A stretch of 64,000 nucleotides of DNA from Candidatus Kerfeldbacteria bacterium (GTDB lineage: Bacteria; Patescibacteriota; Patescibacteriia; SBBC01; CAIJZX01): contig JACPSJ010000001.1 in NCBI GenBank assembly GCA_016193315.1, forward strand, positions 663,478 through 727,477. Direction: 5' to 3'. Both the position numbers and the translations under genes were made by a program. Shown here piece by piece: positions 7,688-54,980 of this stretch (positions are counted from its first letter, which is position 1; each line of letters starts with the position of its first letter). Below the pieces are notes generated by a model. It ran no database searches and was not told the origin of the DNA. It was given only the letters and a program-made list of their open reading frames with translations.

Positions 7688-7959
7688 AGCGACAAAACGC
7701 GTAAGGAGTAGTATGTCACGGGCGCAGATAAAGAGCAAGGGCGGCTGGGCTATTGACTTTGCGAAGCCGACTAGTTGCACCTGGTCGAATTTACTGAACG
7801 CCACGCGAACCTATTTTTCCGGCGAAGCCGGATCCGGCTCTGCCGGAGAGGGCGAAATTTAGCCTGCGGGCGGGCGGAAGGGGGTTCAAGGGGGCCGCCG
7901 CACCACTTCGGGTGCGGGGTAAAAATTCCGCCCGCCCGTCGTCGCCTTTTCCGATTTTT

Positions 7960-8826: not shown

Positions 8827-8910
8827 GTTTTAAATGGTCGTCCTTGGTGGACGACGCTCGAACTATGATACTCGAAACGGGGGTTGATGTCTCGTGGTTC
8901 GCGCGTGCCC

Positions 8911-9462
8911 TTAGGCTGACTGATCACCCACAGGAGTTAGAGGAGGTTGAGGCATGGGCGGTCTAGCACTTTCTATTTTTGAAAGTGCTTCCTCGAGACT
9001 CTGCGTTGTTTCTTGAAAGTTCGTGGTAATGGCAGTAACGTCCTTTTTCGAAAAGGTATGCAACCGTTGATCTACTAGGTCGATAAACTGCACTGGTGTG
9101 GCATCTGAAACATTCTCGTTTAACGACATCTCTCCAGGAGGAGCTATAATCGCGTGTTTTGCAATCCGGAAATAGCCGTTGACTTTCCGTAAGCCAACCA
9201 CAATAGCGTCTATTGGAATATCTGGTGGCAGTTTCTCTTTGTTCCTTTCCAGCAACTCAACCTTTTTACCAAGCATTGTTATTTTCCTTCGGGGTGCTAA
9301 CCCAATCCTCTTGAGAATTTCATCTACGAGTAATTCGCAGGTGTTCGACTGGACGATAATATTTCCGATGAAAGGGTATATCTTTTCATATATATAGCGG
9401 TCGAGACCACTTGGCCCTTCGCCAACTTTCTTGATGTAAAACCATTCCTGTGGTTGATGCAT
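8911..9462 (-). CDS. Hypothetical protein in a low-GC islet
   Basis: 183-aa ORF whose AT content is visibly higher than the flanks. No known motif. Confidence 0.45.
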   Translation of the reverse strand: MHQPQEWFYIKKVGEGPSGLDRYIYEKIYPFIGNIIVQSNTCELLVDEILKRIGLAPRRKITMLGKKVELLERNKEKLPPDIPIDAIVVGLRKVNGYFRIAKHAIIAPPGEMSLNENVSDATPVQFIDLVDQRLHTFSKKDVTAITTNFQETTQSLEEALSKIESARPPMPQPPLTPVGDQSA

Positions 9463-9583
9463 TGGAGTTTATGCGATGAGATTCCAGGTCGAGTCTCGCT
9501 ACATCTCCTCGATTGACTGGCGAATAGTCTAACATTAGTAAACATTTGTCTCAATCTTGTCTGAACTCAGCTCCGATCAATGT

Positions 9584-9847
9584 TTATCGAGCTGAAGTTT
9601 TAGAGACAGGAATCAGTCGCTTTTTTGCGAAGGCAAAACCTGAACCAGATTTCAAGTATTTCTCAAATGCCAGAGCATCTTTCTTTTCCAGGAAAGCACA
9701 GTACCAGACCAATCTGAACGGAACTTTTGCGGAGGAATATTTTTGACCCTTACTGTTATGCTTTGCTAGCTGCTTCTTTAGATCGCTACTGAATCCTTTA
9801 TAGAAACTATGATCTTTCTGACTCTGAATGATGTAGACGTAATACAT
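9584..9847 (-). CDS. Small GIY-YIG nuclease-domain protein (UPF0213/YhbQ-like)
   Basis: YYVYIIQSQKDHSFYKGFSSDLKKQLAKHN matches the GIY-(x10)-YIG motif. Low-GC. Start at the second Met (MYYVYII); the ORF also allows 9886. Confidence 0.65.
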   Translation of the reverse strand: MYYVYIIQSQKDHSFYKGFSSDLKKQLAKHNSKGQKYSSAKVPFRLVWYCAFLEKKDALAFEKYLKSGSGFAFAKKRLIPVSKTSAR

Positions 9848-9949
9848 GTCTTGGCTGCACTCCTTCGCTAAAGCTTCGGAGTACACTGCTCAAATTAAGA
9901 GTCTTTGTAGCTGTGCTTGCACTGCGAAGCTTCGATGGAAGCGAAGCAG

Positions 9950-10030
9950 TGGTCGGGGTGGCGGGGATCGAACCCACGACCTCACGGACCCGCCCCGAAT
10001 AAAGCGAGCCGTAATTGATTCCTCTCCCCG
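9950..10030 (-). other. Orphan tRNA 3'-half fragment (variable loop + T-arm + acceptor 3' strand + encoded CCA) with no matching 5' half
   Basis: RC reads ...CCGTGAGGTC GTGGG TTCGATC CCCGC CACCCCG A CCA. T-stem/loop and acceptor are tRNA-Pro-like but differ from the adjacent intact tRNA-Pro. Confidence 0.6.
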
Positions 10031-10033
10031 CAG

Positions 10034-10106
10034 TCGGGGTACCGAGACTCGAACTCGGGACCTCACGCACCCGAAGCGTGCGCGCTACCAACTGCGCTAT
10101 ACCCCG
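10034..10106 (-). tRNA. tRNA-Pro (anticodon CGG)
   Basis: RC = CGGGGTA TA GCGC AGTTGGTA GCGC G CACGC TTCGGGT GCGTG AGGTC CCGAG TTCGAGT CTCGG TACCCCG A. All four stems are canonical. CCA is not encoded. Confidence 0.85.
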
Positions 10107-10107
10107 A

Positions 10108-10260
10108 CTGCGGGGAGAAATAATGTCTCGCTTTTACGGGGCAAGAACCGTGCGCTTGCCGCGTTTTATGCGGCGCTACCAACTGCCTGCCCCGTCATCC
10201 CGCGCGAGCGGGATTTTACGGGGCGCTACACCTCGACTGGGCGCCGGACGCGCTCCGTCA
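10108..10260 (-). other. Degenerate tRNA-derived debris (three decayed copies of a tRNA-Pro-like D-arm / 5' region)
   Basis: RC contains GGCAGTTGGTAGCGCC and GGTGTAGCGCCCCGTAAAA next to the CAGTTGGTAGCGCG D-arm of the intact tRNA. GCCCCGTAAAA occurs twice. Confidence 0.45.
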
Positions 10261-10320
10261 AGTTTGAAACGACGACCAAACACTAGCACAAACTAGCTAG
10301 TCCATCAAGCACGCTAAATA

Positions 10321-10361: not shown

Positions 10362-10568
10362 TTACATCATCCCGGCCGCTTTCATCACGTCTTCGGCACT
10401 GTTGTACGTTCCGTCCGGCACCTTGTCCATGAACGTTTTTCGGTGGTCTTCCGGCACGTGCGACATGTTGTTGCAGGCCATCCAAATATCCTGCTTGGTG
10501 GCCGGATAGGTGACGTGCGACTTGAGATGGTCCATCATCTCCTGCATATCATTGCCCATTGGTTCCAT
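10362..10568 (-). CDS. DUF2795 small protein
   Basis: HLKSHVTYPATKQDIWMACNNMSHVPEDHRKTFMDKVPDGTYNSAEDVMKAAG matches the DUF2795 consensus (YPAtK...DG.Y.s). SD GGAGGTG lies 5 nt upstream of ATG 10568. Confidence 0.7.
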   Translation of the reverse strand: MEPMGNDMQEMMDHLKSHVTYPATKQDIWMACNNMSHVPEDHRKTFMDKVPDGTYNSAEDVMKAAGMM

Positions 10569-33209: not shown

Positions 33210-33390
33210 TGTAGGGATCCTCCCTATTCGGGTGTGAAGGTGCTCCTAGAGCGATTTGCTCTAATTGGACGCATCTTAGCAATCGCCTCTCTTTTGTCAA
33301 GCGCCGTCGCGACGGCGCATTCTGGTTCTAACCTAACTTCGCCCTCTTAATGGAGGGGTAATGAATATTAATCGAAAAGTGTGGCAGGGG

Positions 33391-33411
33391 CACTAGGATT
33401 CGTCCCTGGGC
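33391..33411 (-). repeat. 21-bp direct repeat identical to the 3' end of tRNA-Trp (CGAATCCTAGTGCCCCTGCCA), 130 bp downstream of the gene
   Basis: tggcaggggcactaggattcg occurs at 33391 and again as the 3' end of tRNA-Trp at 33542. Confidence 0.7.
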
Positions 33412-33541: not shown

Positions 33542-33615
33542 TGGCAGGGGCACTAGGATTCGAACCTAGAATAGAGGTTTTGGAGACCTCCGTGATACCG
33601 TTTCACCATGCCCCC
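33542..33615 (-). tRNA. tRNA-Trp (anticodon CCA), CCA encoded
   Basis: RC = GGGGGCA TG GTGA AACGGTA TCAC G GAGGT CTCCAAA ACCTC TATT CTAGG TTCGAAT CCTAG TGCCCCT G CCA. Confidence 0.85.
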
Positions 33616-34271: not shown

Positions 34272-34380
34272 TGGAGCCAGGACGATGCGAACCGCCGACC
34301 TGCTGTATTTCCCGCGCCAGCCTGGAGCCAGTGGTCGGATTTGAACCGACGACCTTCGCTTTATCCCGCCCCACAAGCCC
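34272..34380 (-). other. Two tandem orphan tRNA 3'-half fragments (T-arm + acceptor 3' strand + CCA), the distal one degenerate
   Basis: RC 34323-34380 = GGGCTTGTGGGGCGGG ATAAAGCGA AGGTC GTCGG TTCAAAT CCGAC CACTGGC T CCA. 34272-34320 is a decayed copy ending TGGCTCCA. Confidence 0.6.
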
Positions 34381-34455
34381 TGGAGCCCACGGTCAGATTC
34401 GAACTGACGACCGGCTGTTTACAAAACAGCTGCTCTGCCCCTGAGCTACGTGGGC
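34381..34455 (-). tRNA. tRNA-Thr (anticodon UGU), CCA encoded
   Basis: RC = GCCCACG TA GCTC AGGGGCA GAGC A GCTGT TTTGTAA ACAGC CGGTC GTCAG TTCGAAT CTGAC CGTGGGC T CCA. Confidence 0.85.
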
Positions 34456-34537
34456 TTGTGGGGCGGGACTCTTGACCCCGTTTCATGGTGCCTGGTCGGG
34501 GTGATACGAGTCATTCAATCTAGTATATACTATCACC

Positions 34538-36479: not shown

Positions 36480-36620
36480 GCCACCATGCCTGGAGCCGAT
36501 GTCGCCGCCATTCGACGGGGTGACCCAGCCCTTACCATGGCGTTGCCCTGCCTGCCCGAACCTGAGCCCATGCGCGGAATTGAACCGCGAACCTACTCCT
36601 TACCCCGCCTGCCACGCGCC
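36480..36620 (-). other. Degenerate 3'-half copies of a tRNA-Thr(GGU)-like gene (tRNA debris)
   Basis: TGAGCCCATGCGCGGAATTGAACCGCGAACCTACTCCTTACC and TGGAGCCGATGTCGCCGCC...CTTACCATGG resemble the 3' half of the intact tRNA at 36621-36696. Confidence 0.55.
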
Positions 36621-36696
36621 TGGAGCCGATGCGCGGATTTGAACCGCGGACCTACTCCTTACCATGGAGTTGCTCTACCAACTGAGCTACATCGGC
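36621..36696 (-). tRNA. tRNA-Thr (anticodon GGU), CCA encoded
   Basis: RC = GCCGATG TA GCTC AGTTGGTA GAGC A ACTCC ATGGTAA GGAGT AGGTC CGCGG TTCAAAT CCGCG CATCGGC T CCA. Confidence 0.85.
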
Positions 36697-36720
36697 GCGA
36701 GGCGACTGGCGGGCAGGCGT

Positions 36721-36760
36721 GGAGTTGCTCTACCAGCTGAGCTACATGGGCCCGGGTTCA
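36721..36760 (-). other. Orphan tRNA 5'-half (acceptor + D-arm + 5' anticodon stem) of a tRNA-Thr-like gene
   Basis: RC = GCCCATG TA GCTC AGCTGGTA GAGC A ACTCC ACGC. Its acceptor GCCCATG matches the CATGGGC of the 3' fragment at ~36560-36610. Confidence 0.55.
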
Positions 36761-36836
36761 GGCCGGTGGGTCTGCCAGCTGCTGACGCTAGTATCCGGCT
36801 TTGCCGGGCGTGTCCGGGAATTACGCGGGCACGAAA

Positions 36837-54083: not shown

Positions 54084-54980
54084 GTGCCACGCCGATTGGT
54101 TATCATCCTCGGTCCGACCGCCTCGGGAAAATCAAAACTAGGCCTCCAGCTCGCCAAGAAGTTTCAGGGGGTCGTCATTTCCGCTGACTCACGGCAGGTC
54201 TATCGTGGCTTGAACATCGGCACCGGAAAAATCAACCAGCCAGGCATGCGTGGTGTACCGCACTATCTGCTTGATGTCGCTTCACCGCGCCGCCAGTACT
54301 CGGTGGCCCGGTACGCCCGCGATGTCCGTCGGGTGTTGAACTCTATTGACCCAAACCGACCGGTGTTTCTTGTCGGCGGTTCGCCGTTTTACATCAAGGC
54401 CGTCACCGAGCCGCACAGCTTTTCACCGGTACCGCCGGATGCGGCACTGCGGCGGCGGTTGGCGGGTCTGACGACCGCGCGATTAATCGCGCGGCTACAA
54501 AAACTCGATCCGGAACGTGCCCGGCATATCGACCCCGCCAACCGCCGCCGCCTCATTCGGGCGGTTGAAATCGCCGGCGAGCGAAGGCAGTATTATTCAT
54601 TGCAGTTTCCGCCGATGCAGGTATTGAAGATCGGACTGGCTGTGCCGCGCCGGATGCTGTTCGGCCGCATCGATCGCCAGGTCAAGCGACGTCTGCGTGG
54701 CGGCATGATTAATGAAGTTCAACGGCTTCACCGCCGAGGCGTGCCGTGGTCACGTTTTCGAGCGTTTGGTCTTGAATATCGTCTGGTGGTTGACTATCTC
54801 CGCGGGAGATTGAGAAGAGAACGGTTGGGGCCAAAAATGAAATCCGCCACCCACGATTTTGCCCGGCGGCAAATGACGTGGTGGAAACGTGATTCAGGAA
54901 TTCACTGGGTTCGTCGACTGGACAAAGCGGAACGCCTGGTATCCAGATTCCTCAGGACCAGCGCCGGCGGTAGGACCTGA
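54084..54980 (+). CDS. miaA: tRNA dimethylallyltransferase
   Basis: P-loop ILGPTASGKS and SADSRQVYRGLNIGTGK. Confidence 0.9.
   Translation: MPRRLVIILGPTASGKSKLGLQLAKKFQGVVISADSRQVYRGLNIGTGKINQPGMRGVPHYLLDVASPRRQYSVARYARDVRRVLNSIDPNRPVFLVGGSPFYIKAVTEPHSFSPVPPDAALRRRLAGLTTARLIARLQKLDPERARHIDPANRRRLIRAVEIAGERRQYYSLQFPPMQVLKIGLAVPRRMLFGRIDRQVKRRLRGGMINEVQRLHRRGVPWSRFRAFGLEYRLVVDYLRGRLRRERLGPKMKSATHDFARRQMTWWKRDSGIHWVRRLDKAERLVSRFLRTSAGGRT

Follow-up and report, generated by a model that had tools for sequence, protein, structure and literature searches.

The subject of this study is a tRNA-Pro(CGG) gene of a Candidatus Kerfeldbacteria bacterium and the tRNA-derived pieces around it. The gene lies in a 64,000-nucleotide (nt) stretch of contig JACPSJ010000001.1 (positions 663,478–727,477), here called the window, to which coordinates refer unless another sequence is named; loci and contigs of other assemblies carry labels beginning with L. 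The working gene sits between two pieces that are well supported as the halves of one older tRNA-Pro(CGG), and the same nested arrangement is found at two tRNA-Thr loci in the window and in other lineages.

The tRNA-Pro(CGG) locus

The working tRNA-Pro(CGG) lies on the minus strand at 10033/10034–10106. An inverted-repeat search placed it within a 19-nt, 100% complementary repeat (10023–10041 and 10100–10118, TCTCCCCGCAGTCGGGGTA / TACCCCGACTGCGGGGAGA), in which the 7-bp acceptor stem is followed by a T:A pair with the discriminator and then by 11 flanking pairs. A perfect inverted repeat bracketing this gene had been claimed in an earlier reading of the sequence (the original prediction) and was borne out. 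A second, outer repeat follows at 10001–10016 and 10119–10134 with 81% complementarity (aaagcgag / ctcgcttt). The predicted duplex of leader and trailer has a free energy of −33.1 kcal/mol, compared with −11.7 ± 3.2 kcal/mol for shuffled trailers, none of 500 being as good (z −6.8). In a window-wide census of inverted repeats with a spacing of ≤140 nt, the three longest include the brackets of both tRNA-Pro and tRNA-Thr(TGT). The 331-nt region 9940–10270, whose folding the original prediction had proposed as a check, forms nested helices (z = −7.8).

Directly after the intact tRNA-Pro the sequence reads CTG, not CCA. The orphan 3' half beyond it, which was also part of the original prediction, does end in CCA and is 78% identical to the 3' part of tRNA-Pro itself, with a local alignment better than all 1000 shuffles. 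An Rfam search of this half up to an E value of 10 gives only a weak match resembling transfer-messenger RNA. Upstream, three decayed D-arm-like segments had been described; their position was right and their number was not, as there are two GTAGCGCC segments (10222–10229 and 10172–10179), while the third copy lies inside the tRNA. The two upstream segments are parts of a single split 5' half.

Taken together, the upstream pieces and the downstream CCA-ending half are well supported as one older tRNA-Pro(CGG), interrupted by 153 nt of inserted DNA (9993–10145) at approximately nt 33|34 of its anticodon loop; the insert runs from a leader of 39 nt through the working tRNA to a complementary trailer of 41 nt (Table 1). 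On the minus strand the 5' part reads CGAGGTG-TAGCGC, a 38-nt hairpin, AGTTGGTAGCGC, a 19-nt hairpin, and G-CACGG-TT, and the sequence resumes after the insert with CGGGT-CCGTG-AGGTC-GTGGGTTCGATCCCCGC-CACCCCG-A-CCA. In silico removal of the insert and the two small hairpins yields a tRNA-Pro(cgg) that is recognised by ARAGORN, with a 5/5 anticodon stem, good D and T arms, and a single A3:C70 mismatch in the acceptor stem. Chimeras of outer halves from different loci are not recognised. The older tRNA-Pro is now a pseudogene, further broken by the two small hairpin insertions. A homologue of the TCCCGC..GCGGGA hairpin is present in the 5' fragment of the relative L237.

Two explanations were rejected. 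Ordinary tandem tRNA genes, the finding that would have spoken against the original prediction, were not seen, as both ARAGORN and the Rfam covariance model give one tRNA per locus. An assembly artefact was ruled out because an independent assembly from another sample, L235, runs through the locus and spans window positions 10391–7907 at 100% identity. Of six short-read contigs from other samples, four (L001, L003, L004, and L005) end within the working tRNA-Pro at 10068–10079, L002 ends at 10371, and L235 continues through. The contig ends within tRNA-Pro may reflect strain heterogeneity or a problem in assembling the hairpin. Scans for promoters and terminators at the three nested loci found nothing but the terminator of the upstream gene.

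The tRNA-Thr loci

The nested architecture is repeated at tRNA-Thr(TGT) (34381–34455) and tRNA-Thr(GGT) (36621–36696). At the latter, RNAfold predicts a cloverleaf that carries a second cloverleaf in its anticodon loop, and in silico excision of the insert restores a tRNA-Thr(ggt). The outer gene has C33 and has lost its CCA. A third, outermost layer is represented by a decayed 3' half, with a possible 5' partner at 36765–36799. At tRNA-Thr(TGT), two stacked 3' halves of older copies follow the cassette, and no recognisable 5' half of these copies was found. Alignments of the halves in the flanks at the Pro and Thr loci beat all 1000 shuffles, compared with 0/4 for wrong-side controls, which bears out the earlier claim that the recurrence of this architecture at both Thr loci is unlikely to be chance. 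A weak tRNA-Trp-like 5' fragment (ggcaccatgaaacggggtca) also occurs upstream of the tRNA-Thr(TGT) cassette at 34470–34500 on the minus strand (p ~0.03); it is not relied on here.

Table 1. Features of the nested tRNA loci and of neighbouring tRNA-linked sequences in the window
Feature	Coordinates	Strand	Evidence or remark
Outer tRNA-Pro, piece a: acceptor 5' strand CGAGGTG and D-stem 5' strand	10223–10235	−	6/7 pairing with CACCCCG in the 3' half
38-nt hairpin inserted into the D region of the outer tRNA-Pro, CCCGTAAAA TCCCGC..GCGGGA TGACGGGG	10185–10222	−	RNA fold
Outer tRNA-Pro, piece b: D loop and D-stem 3' strand, AGTTGGTAGCGC	10173–10184	−	Alignment 10169–10194 better than all 1000 shuffles
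19-nt hairpin insert GCCGC ATAAAAC GCGGC between D and anticodon arms of the outer tRNA-Pro	10154–10172	−	RNA fold
Outer tRNA-Pro, piece c: anticodon-stem 5' strand CACGG with U32 and U33	10146–10153	−	5/5 pairing with CCGTG of the 3' half
Leader of the inserted Pro cassette	10107–10145	−	Complementary to trailer, z −6.8
Working (inner) tRNA-Pro(CGG), no encoded CCA	10034–10106	−	ARAGORN; Rfam RF00005, 66 bits
Trailer of the inserted Pro cassette	9993–10033	−	Complementary to leader
Outer tRNA-Pro, 3' part: anticodon CGG, T arm, acceptor 3' strand, CCA	9950–9992	−	Alignment, shuffles, in silico excision
Outer tRNA-Thr(GGT) gene, 5' half, 34 nt	36718–36751	−	31/32 identity to the inner copy
Inserted tRNA-Thr(GGT) cassette	36604–36717	−	Leader CCTGCCCGCC.. 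36697–36717, tRNA 36621–36696, trailer ..GGCAGGCGGG 36604–36620
Outer tRNA-Thr(GGT) gene, 3' half, 41 nt	36563–36603	−	Joined to the 5' half gives tRNA-Thr(ggt), ARAGORN; fold
tRNA-Thr(GGT), third and outermost layer: decayed 3' half	36491–36538	−	Read from the sequence; GGCAGGCAGG junction
tRNA-Thr(TGT) cassette: leader CCCGCCCCACAA, tRNA 34381–34455, trailer GGGCTTGTGGGGCGGGA	34364–34467	−	17-nt 100% inverted repeat
tRNA-Thr(TGT): two stacked 3' halves of older copies, 34323–34363 and 34272–34304	34272–34363	−	Alignment against shuffles
GIY-YIG cassette: leader hairpin CACTGC..GCAGTG and open reading frame for 87 amino acids (9584–9847)	9584–9949	−	Pfam PF01541, E 1.8e-13
Repeat of the tRNA-Trp 3' end, T loop to CCA, last 21 nt exact	33382–33407	−	134 nt downstream of tRNA-Trp 33542–33615

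The tRNA-Pro locus in relatives

Two proteins encoded in the window are 100% identical to proteins assigned to Candidatus Kerfeldbacteria, a lineage of Patescibacteria. The orthologous locus, tkt-ROK-...-uppS, was compared in the nearest available relatives (L236–L239). Between the inner (A) and outer (B) tRNA-Pro copies of the window there are compensatory changes in the stems of the acceptor, anticodon, and T arms, and B is therefore taken to have been a separate working gene. The last 30 nt of B match both L239 and L237 at 27/30 positions, compared with 23 and 25/30, respectively, for A. This closer match indicates that B is the native allele of the lineage and A a replacement. Differing by several compensatory pairs, A and B look like the result of a diverged allele taking over, not of simple duplication.

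A comparison of the locus in related genomes had been proposed in the original prediction. L239 has a single, plain tRNA-Pro(CGG) with a B-type acceptor and an encoded CCA, yet leader–trailer pairing is present there. L239 and L238 share the CACCCCGACCA 3' end with an encoded CCA, that of L238 being of the B type. L237 carries a 5' fragment and a tRNA within a perfect 10-bp bracket. L236 is nested, and its outer 3' fragment resembles the inner type of the window at 17/18 nt (alignment score 16). To judge from these sequences, the alleles appear to have replaced each other in a different order in different lineages.

Leader–trailer pairing

Duplexes of −23 to −38 kcal/mol are predicted at the orthologous tRNA-Pro loci and at tRNA-Thr loci, the z score being close to −7 for six of them and between −2.6 and −2.9 for another three. 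At four orthologous tRNA-Pro loci and several tRNA-Thr loci the pairing persists although the sequences are unrelated. Every cassette is bounded by an inverted repeat, as a miniature inverted-repeat transposable element (MITE) or other transposon with terminal inverted repeats would be. No leader–trailer stem is present at tRNA-Trp in the same window.

Recurrence across genomes

One genome per species (185,579 in total) was scanned for two D arms 15–45 nt apart, a distance too short for tandem genes. At least 119 loci were found, many of which are looser duplications of the 5' half. A locus was considered clearly nested where the 5' acceptor strand of the outer gene is complementary to a 3' half just past the inner tRNA. 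Among the matches listed, such loci occur in Parcubacteria (L020), Saccharibacteria (L027, L045, and L073, the last with two tRNAs), Peribacteria (L124), other Patescibacteria (L086, with four layers of tRNA-Ala), Omnitrophota (L100 and L106), and metagenome-assembled genomes (MAGs) with doubtful labels (L028, L054, L058, L090, L091, L099, and L114). Distant relatives were also located through the neighbouring tsf gene, which encodes elongation factor Ts (EF-Ts). Among these, nesting is complete in L209, the bracket and a 3' half remain in L145 and L147, and L205 has a duplication of the 5' half. This EF-Ts search, made in JGI metagenomes, gave a best match of only 53% identity and thus no empty site at the population level.

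Automated single excision restores the cognate tRNA at 15 loci, and the excision junctions are unique in L020, L054, L058, L091, and L106. A control with mismatched flanks was not clean, giving 4–5 matches, because many of the scanned loci are homologous to each other. Part of the anticodon stem is missing from the outer copies at L027, L124, and L073, and every stem differs between the inner and outer copies of L020.

The four nested tRNA-Ala(CGC)-like layers of L086, a Patescibacteria MAG, lie at 1400–1860 and have CCTGCCCGCC ends at two different layers. An analogous nested tRNA-Phe(GAA) occurs in ~25 gut Clostridia MAGs (L008, L009, L030–L032, L040, L042, L047, L048, L083, L098, L119, L120, and others), in which nt 1–48 of an older copy, split near the T arm, precede an intact tRNA-Phe. 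Together, the trailer and the 5' piece make up a 9-bp inverted repeat. The T-arm and acceptor piece that belongs to this 5' piece lies ~115 nt downstream in L119.

Cassette ends and junctions

The junctions are blunt and lie at 35|36 in tRNA-Thr and at 37|38 in tRNA-Val and tRNA-Ala. Joining the flanks rebuilds the 7-nt anticodon loop exactly, as TTCG|TAA, TTTG|TAA, and ATCG|TAA in Thr and as TTCACA|T, TTTACA|T, and TTCGCA|T in Val and Ala. No target-site duplication was found at the cassette junctions, and the two junctions have no core in common.

Cassettes with different cargo share the termini CCTGCCCGCC...GGCAGGCGGG, namely Thr-GGT in the window, Val in L045 and L028, and Ala in L086. In the Thr-CGT and Thr-TGT cassettes of L020, L054, L058, and L091 the CCTGCCCGCC/GGCAGGCGGG termini are reverse-complemented, while the cargo tRNA always has the orientation of the outer gene, whichever way the termini face. 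Inversion of the termini turns a G:U pair into a C:A mismatch in RNA. Their conservation is thus more likely to be a property of the DNA than a splice signal.

Searches for an agent of insertion were negative. No tyrosine or serine integrase was present in the open reading frame (ORF) lists of the window, in Pfam matches, or among ORFs around 22 nested loci. The inserts contain no Rfam intron family or group I catalytic core, Rfam searches giving tRNA only. A scan of IMG/VR for CCTGCCCGCC-N70-100-GGCAGGCGGG gave 17 matches, mostly GC-rich coding sequence and a few solo hairpins; none contained a tRNA, and phage-borne cassettes are thus not supported.

Palindromes and partial duplications are also seen at these loci. 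Solo GC-rich palindromes with CCCGCC..GGCGGG ends sit in dead halves in L147 and in the 5' half of the window's outer tRNA-Pro. In L147 the same ~40-nt palindrome (CCCGCCTCG..CGAGGCGGG) occurs in two dead halves, the 3' half of a tRNA-Thr and the 5' half of a tRNA-Trp, which would fit a small palindrome that is mobile and related to the cassette ends. Between two minus-strand genes at 7867–7938 of the window lies a GC-rich inverted repeat (CGGGCGGGCGGAA / TTCCGCCCGCCCG) with ends like the CCCGCC..GGCGGG termini of cassettes, and a perfect 18-nt inverted repeat with 67 nt between its arms (54449–54466 / 54534–54551) lies in an apparently miaA-like coding region. Upstream of tRNA-Thr(tgt) in L205 (2456–2532) there is an exact 43-nt tandem duplication of the leader and 5' half, with a fold-back (reverse-complement) copy of the anticodon stem at its junction. 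This fold-back has the appearance of a signature left by a DNA break in the anticodon loop.

The GIY-YIG islet and the tRNA-Trp repeat

A low-GC islet at ~8850–9950 (~42% compared with ~60%) adjoins the tRNA-Pro locus and contains two minus-strand genes, a small GIY-YIG gene encoding 87 amino acids (aa) and a 183-aa ORF (8911–9462). The former matches Pfam and gave no match in PHROGs or NCBIfam; the latter gave none in Pfam, PHROGs, or NCBIfam. The GIY-YIG cassette is joined directly to the CCA of the older tRNA-Pro. Homologues of 79 aa are widespread in the candidate phyla radiation (CPR), and they directly follow tRNA-Pro(ggg) in L223 and tRNA-Glu in L225 and L226. The junction motif CCA|CTGCTTCGC..GCAGTG is the same in L223 and L226. 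Further homologues lie next to duplicated tRNA halves in L006, L007, L018, L022, L065, and L117. The tRNA-linked GIY-YIG protein may be the nuclease behind breaks in tRNA genes. No GIY-YIG gene lies near either Thr locus in the window, and because two of the three nested loci lack such a gene, the link is treated only as a lead. At the far end of the islet lies a weak fragment resembling the stretch from T loop to CCA (agttcgagcgtcgtccacca, ~8850–8869, minus strand); it may mark the opposite edge of an insertion into the T loop of tRNA-Pro.

A scar of another, att-like kind lies downstream of tRNA-Trp, where the 3' end of the gene is directly repeated. The 134-nt insert between tRNA-Trp and this repeat contains many CTTCGC / GCGAAG motifs that resemble the GIY-YIG leader.

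Interpretation

The anatomy of the nested loci is described with high confidence, while confidence in any route of insertion is low. The reading that we consider probable is serial nested replacement, in which a repeat-bounded tRNA unit entered, as DNA, the anticodon loop of the cognate gene that preceded it. A complete cassette would be pasted into the resident gene, and the insertion would be harmless because the cassette supplies exactly the tRNA that it destroys. Each new copy would present a fresh target, so that repeated rounds would stack layers while the old halves decay. The conserved halves of the old gene could act as homology arms through which a cassette moves between relatives. 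Transcription would still begin upstream of the outermost layer. The strong leader–trailer duplex would let the inner tRNA fold alone, avoiding the near-identical dead halves, and might offer an entry point for a double-strand-specific RNase. RNase P, 3' trimming, and CCA addition would then free tRNA-Pro. Of what the original prediction called turnover by nested duplication, the closest of its three explanations, the strict nesting, the paired outer halves, and the restoration of a cognate tRNA upon excision all stand; simple duplication probably does not, as the Pro copies have diverged. That the fragments on either side belong to a single interrupted gene had not been part of the original prediction.

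A more far-reaching version of this account, which we put forward only tentatively and hold less likely than not to be right, is that the loci represent an unrecognised class of self-compensating, enzyme-less mobile tRNA cassettes of ~110–155 bp, bounded by inverted repeats and including one widespread family, CCTGCCCGCC...GGCAGGCGGG. Such cassettes would home into cognate anticodon-loop DNA, carrying a replacement gene instead of splicing activity. They would have spread over Patescibacteria and Omnitrophota, the halves of the destroyed genes serving them as universal homology arms, perhaps with the help of a structure-specific nuclease, for which the tRNA-linked GIY-YIG family would be a candidate.

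Several observations weigh against serial insertion of a bounded unit. Reconstruction of the 5' half of the older tRNA-Pro requires three hand-chosen cuts. The un-nested orthologue L239 also has leader–trailer pairing (z −2.9), so the bracket may be native to the transcription unit rather than a mark of insertion, the whole unit having been pasted. Many cassettes, including that of tRNA-Pro, have repeats unrelated to the shared termini, and a single transposase with fixed ends therefore cannot explain all cases. Exact copies of the end motifs are confined, within the 64-kb window, to tRNA-Thr(GGT), the counts with one mismatch being those expected by chance, and the motifs form no dispersed repeat there. 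Clustering of the ORFs around 22 nested loci revealed no recurring recombinase or transposase, and no enzyme was identified. The outer genes of L020, L054, L058, and L091 are perfectly intact once the insert is excised, which is consistent with recent insertion and also with a functional, spliced outer gene. Finally, L099, L209, L147, and L205 have identical layers and duplicated leaders, and these could have arisen by local duplication without a mobile cassette.

Local partial duplication is the foremost alternative, and we consider it unlikely. Here, breaks or replication slippage at the anticodon-loop hairpin would copy the leader with the 5' half to the upstream side of the gene and the 3' half with the trailer to its downstream side, and the working copy would later drift by compensatory change. 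The exact 43-nt copy and fold-back anticodon stem of L205 are what such a process would leave, as are the outer halves of L209 and L147, which share the leader or trailer of the inner gene, and the identical 58-nt units on both sides in L099. However, tRNA-Pro A and B differ by at least four compensatory pairs while the supposedly neutral outer copy has just one disruptive mismatch, and the allele order is reversed in L236. The divergence of L020 in every stem, the unrelated leaders of successive layers in the window, and the same termini on cassettes with different cargo in different phyla are also at odds with copying in place.

The original prediction raised stacked att remnants, in which elements crossing over in the anticodon or T loop brought in a tRNA segment and were later deleted. 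This is improbable, more so than local duplication. Fragments of tRNA genes from integrated elements are well documented (PMC9897764). In the window, the exact 21-nt copy of the tRNA-Trp 3' end and the low-GC islet that abuts the old tRNA-Pro CCA, with its weak fragment at the far end, fit such events. At the nested loci they do not: classical integration leaves downstream 3' fragments only, whereas here upstream 5' halves pair with 3' halves, so that the flanks are the 5' and 3' halves of one gene rather than two copies of a 3' segment, the latter being found only at tRNA-Trp. The inserted piece is a whole tRNA with ~80 nt more, the two junctions lack a shared core, and the loci and their surroundings contain no integrase. 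Covariation between the acceptor strands of the inner gene argues that both of its halves arrived together.

A live outer gene is very unlikely. The insert would then be a new bacterial tRNA intron hosting a second tRNA, its conserved ends would be splice signals, and both tRNAs would be made. The perfect cloverleaves obtained by precise excision in L020, L054, L058, and L091, the conserved insert ends, and the canonical 37|38 position in Val and Ala are in keeping with this. The reverse-complemented ends, with their C:A mismatch in RNA, argue instead for an element at the DNA level, and the inserts match no Rfam intron family. At the junctions of L045, L058, and the window, inspected by hand only, the frame helix abuts an asymmetric internal loop and no bulge-helix-bulge (3-4-3) motif could be drawn. 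Many outer copies are plainly defective, such as tRNA-Pro with A3:C70 and two inserts, tRNA-Thr(GGT) with C33, and tRNA-Thr(TGT) without a 5' half. We know of no proteinaceous tRNA-splicing endonuclease in bacteria.

It is just as improbable that the inverted repeat is a mere processing or stability stem of the precursor tRNA, like the leader–trailer stems of rRNA, with unrelated debris around it: the pairing kept with unrelated sequences at the orthologous loci supports the processing duplex that the original prediction had considered, but this alone leaves unexplained why the repeat-bounded unit has, right at its borders, two cognate halves that can pair with each other, and tRNA-Trp has no such stem. 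A processing role for the duplex is compatible with serial replacement and has been folded into it above.

Comparison with known systems

No description of a tRNA gene nested in its cognate tRNA gene was found in the searchable full-text literature. The nearest parallels are integrative elements such as prophages and genomic islands, which leave partial copies near an intact tRNA, restore the disrupted function with the incoming DNA, and favour anticodon and T loops. Theirs is a 3' segment, whereas the nested insert is only ~115–155 nt and carries a complete tRNA. The old gene is split here into flanking 5' and 3' halves, the layers are nested rather than tandem, and there is neither an integrase nor a shared junction core.

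The disrupted tRNAs of archaea and red algae (non-canonical or multiple introns, split and permuted genes, and the mobile introns of Thermoproteales) are similar in that the interruption lies in or near the anticodon loop with flanking helices, inserts seem to move between tRNA genes, and more than one interruption per gene is possible. They differ in that the host here is bacterial, the interrupted gene is apparently dead, and no bulge-helix-bulge was seen by hand inspection. To our knowledge, archaeal tRNA introns carrying a full cognate tRNA gene have not been reported. Group I introns in bacterial tRNAs are likewise tolerated in the anticodon loop since function is restored; here this is done by a replacement gene instead of self-splicing, and the inserts fall far short of the length of a ribozyme core.

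SegB of phage T4, a free-standing GIY-YIG homing endonuclease, is known to bring about the preferential inheritance or turnover of tRNA gene regions (PMC2330249). As in that system, a small GIY-YIG gene is attached to tRNA genes here, although the 79–87-aa CPR protein is predicted to consist of the catalytic domain only and a causal link is speculative. Dada DNA transposons target tRNA and small nuclear RNA genes in animals by means of a DDE transposase with 6–7-bp target duplications, and their survival rests on multicopy targets (PMC3706591). They share with the cassettes described here a sequence-specific insertion inside small RNA genes; in contrast, these cassettes are without transposase or target duplication and compensate by carrying the target gene.

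None of the compared systems combines complete cognate tRNA cargo, anticodon-loop insertion, blunt junctions, the lack of an enzyme, and multi-layer nesting. An insertion targeted to a tRNA gene that compensates for its own damage is a known kind of event, and there is a realistic chance that these cassettes are a new class of mobile element.

Significance

Extension of the acceptor stem to at least 18 bp buries both the RNase P site and the CCA end, which poses a processing puzzle for these organisms. The fragments and pseudo-halves can mislead the annotation of tRNAs in CPR genomes, and the repeats can break assemblies. If the conserved termini and blunt, site-specific junctions are read as above, they imply an uncharacterised recombination or repair activity on hairpin DNA, which might be of use as a tool. 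A whole spare gene would be a third way for DNA to persist inside an essential tRNA gene, besides self-splicing introns and elements that rebuild the 3' end. The layers would form a datable fossil record of successive alleles at one locus, with signs of exchange between lineages, and the turnover and horizontal exchange of tRNA genes in reduced genomes would thereby become directly testable.

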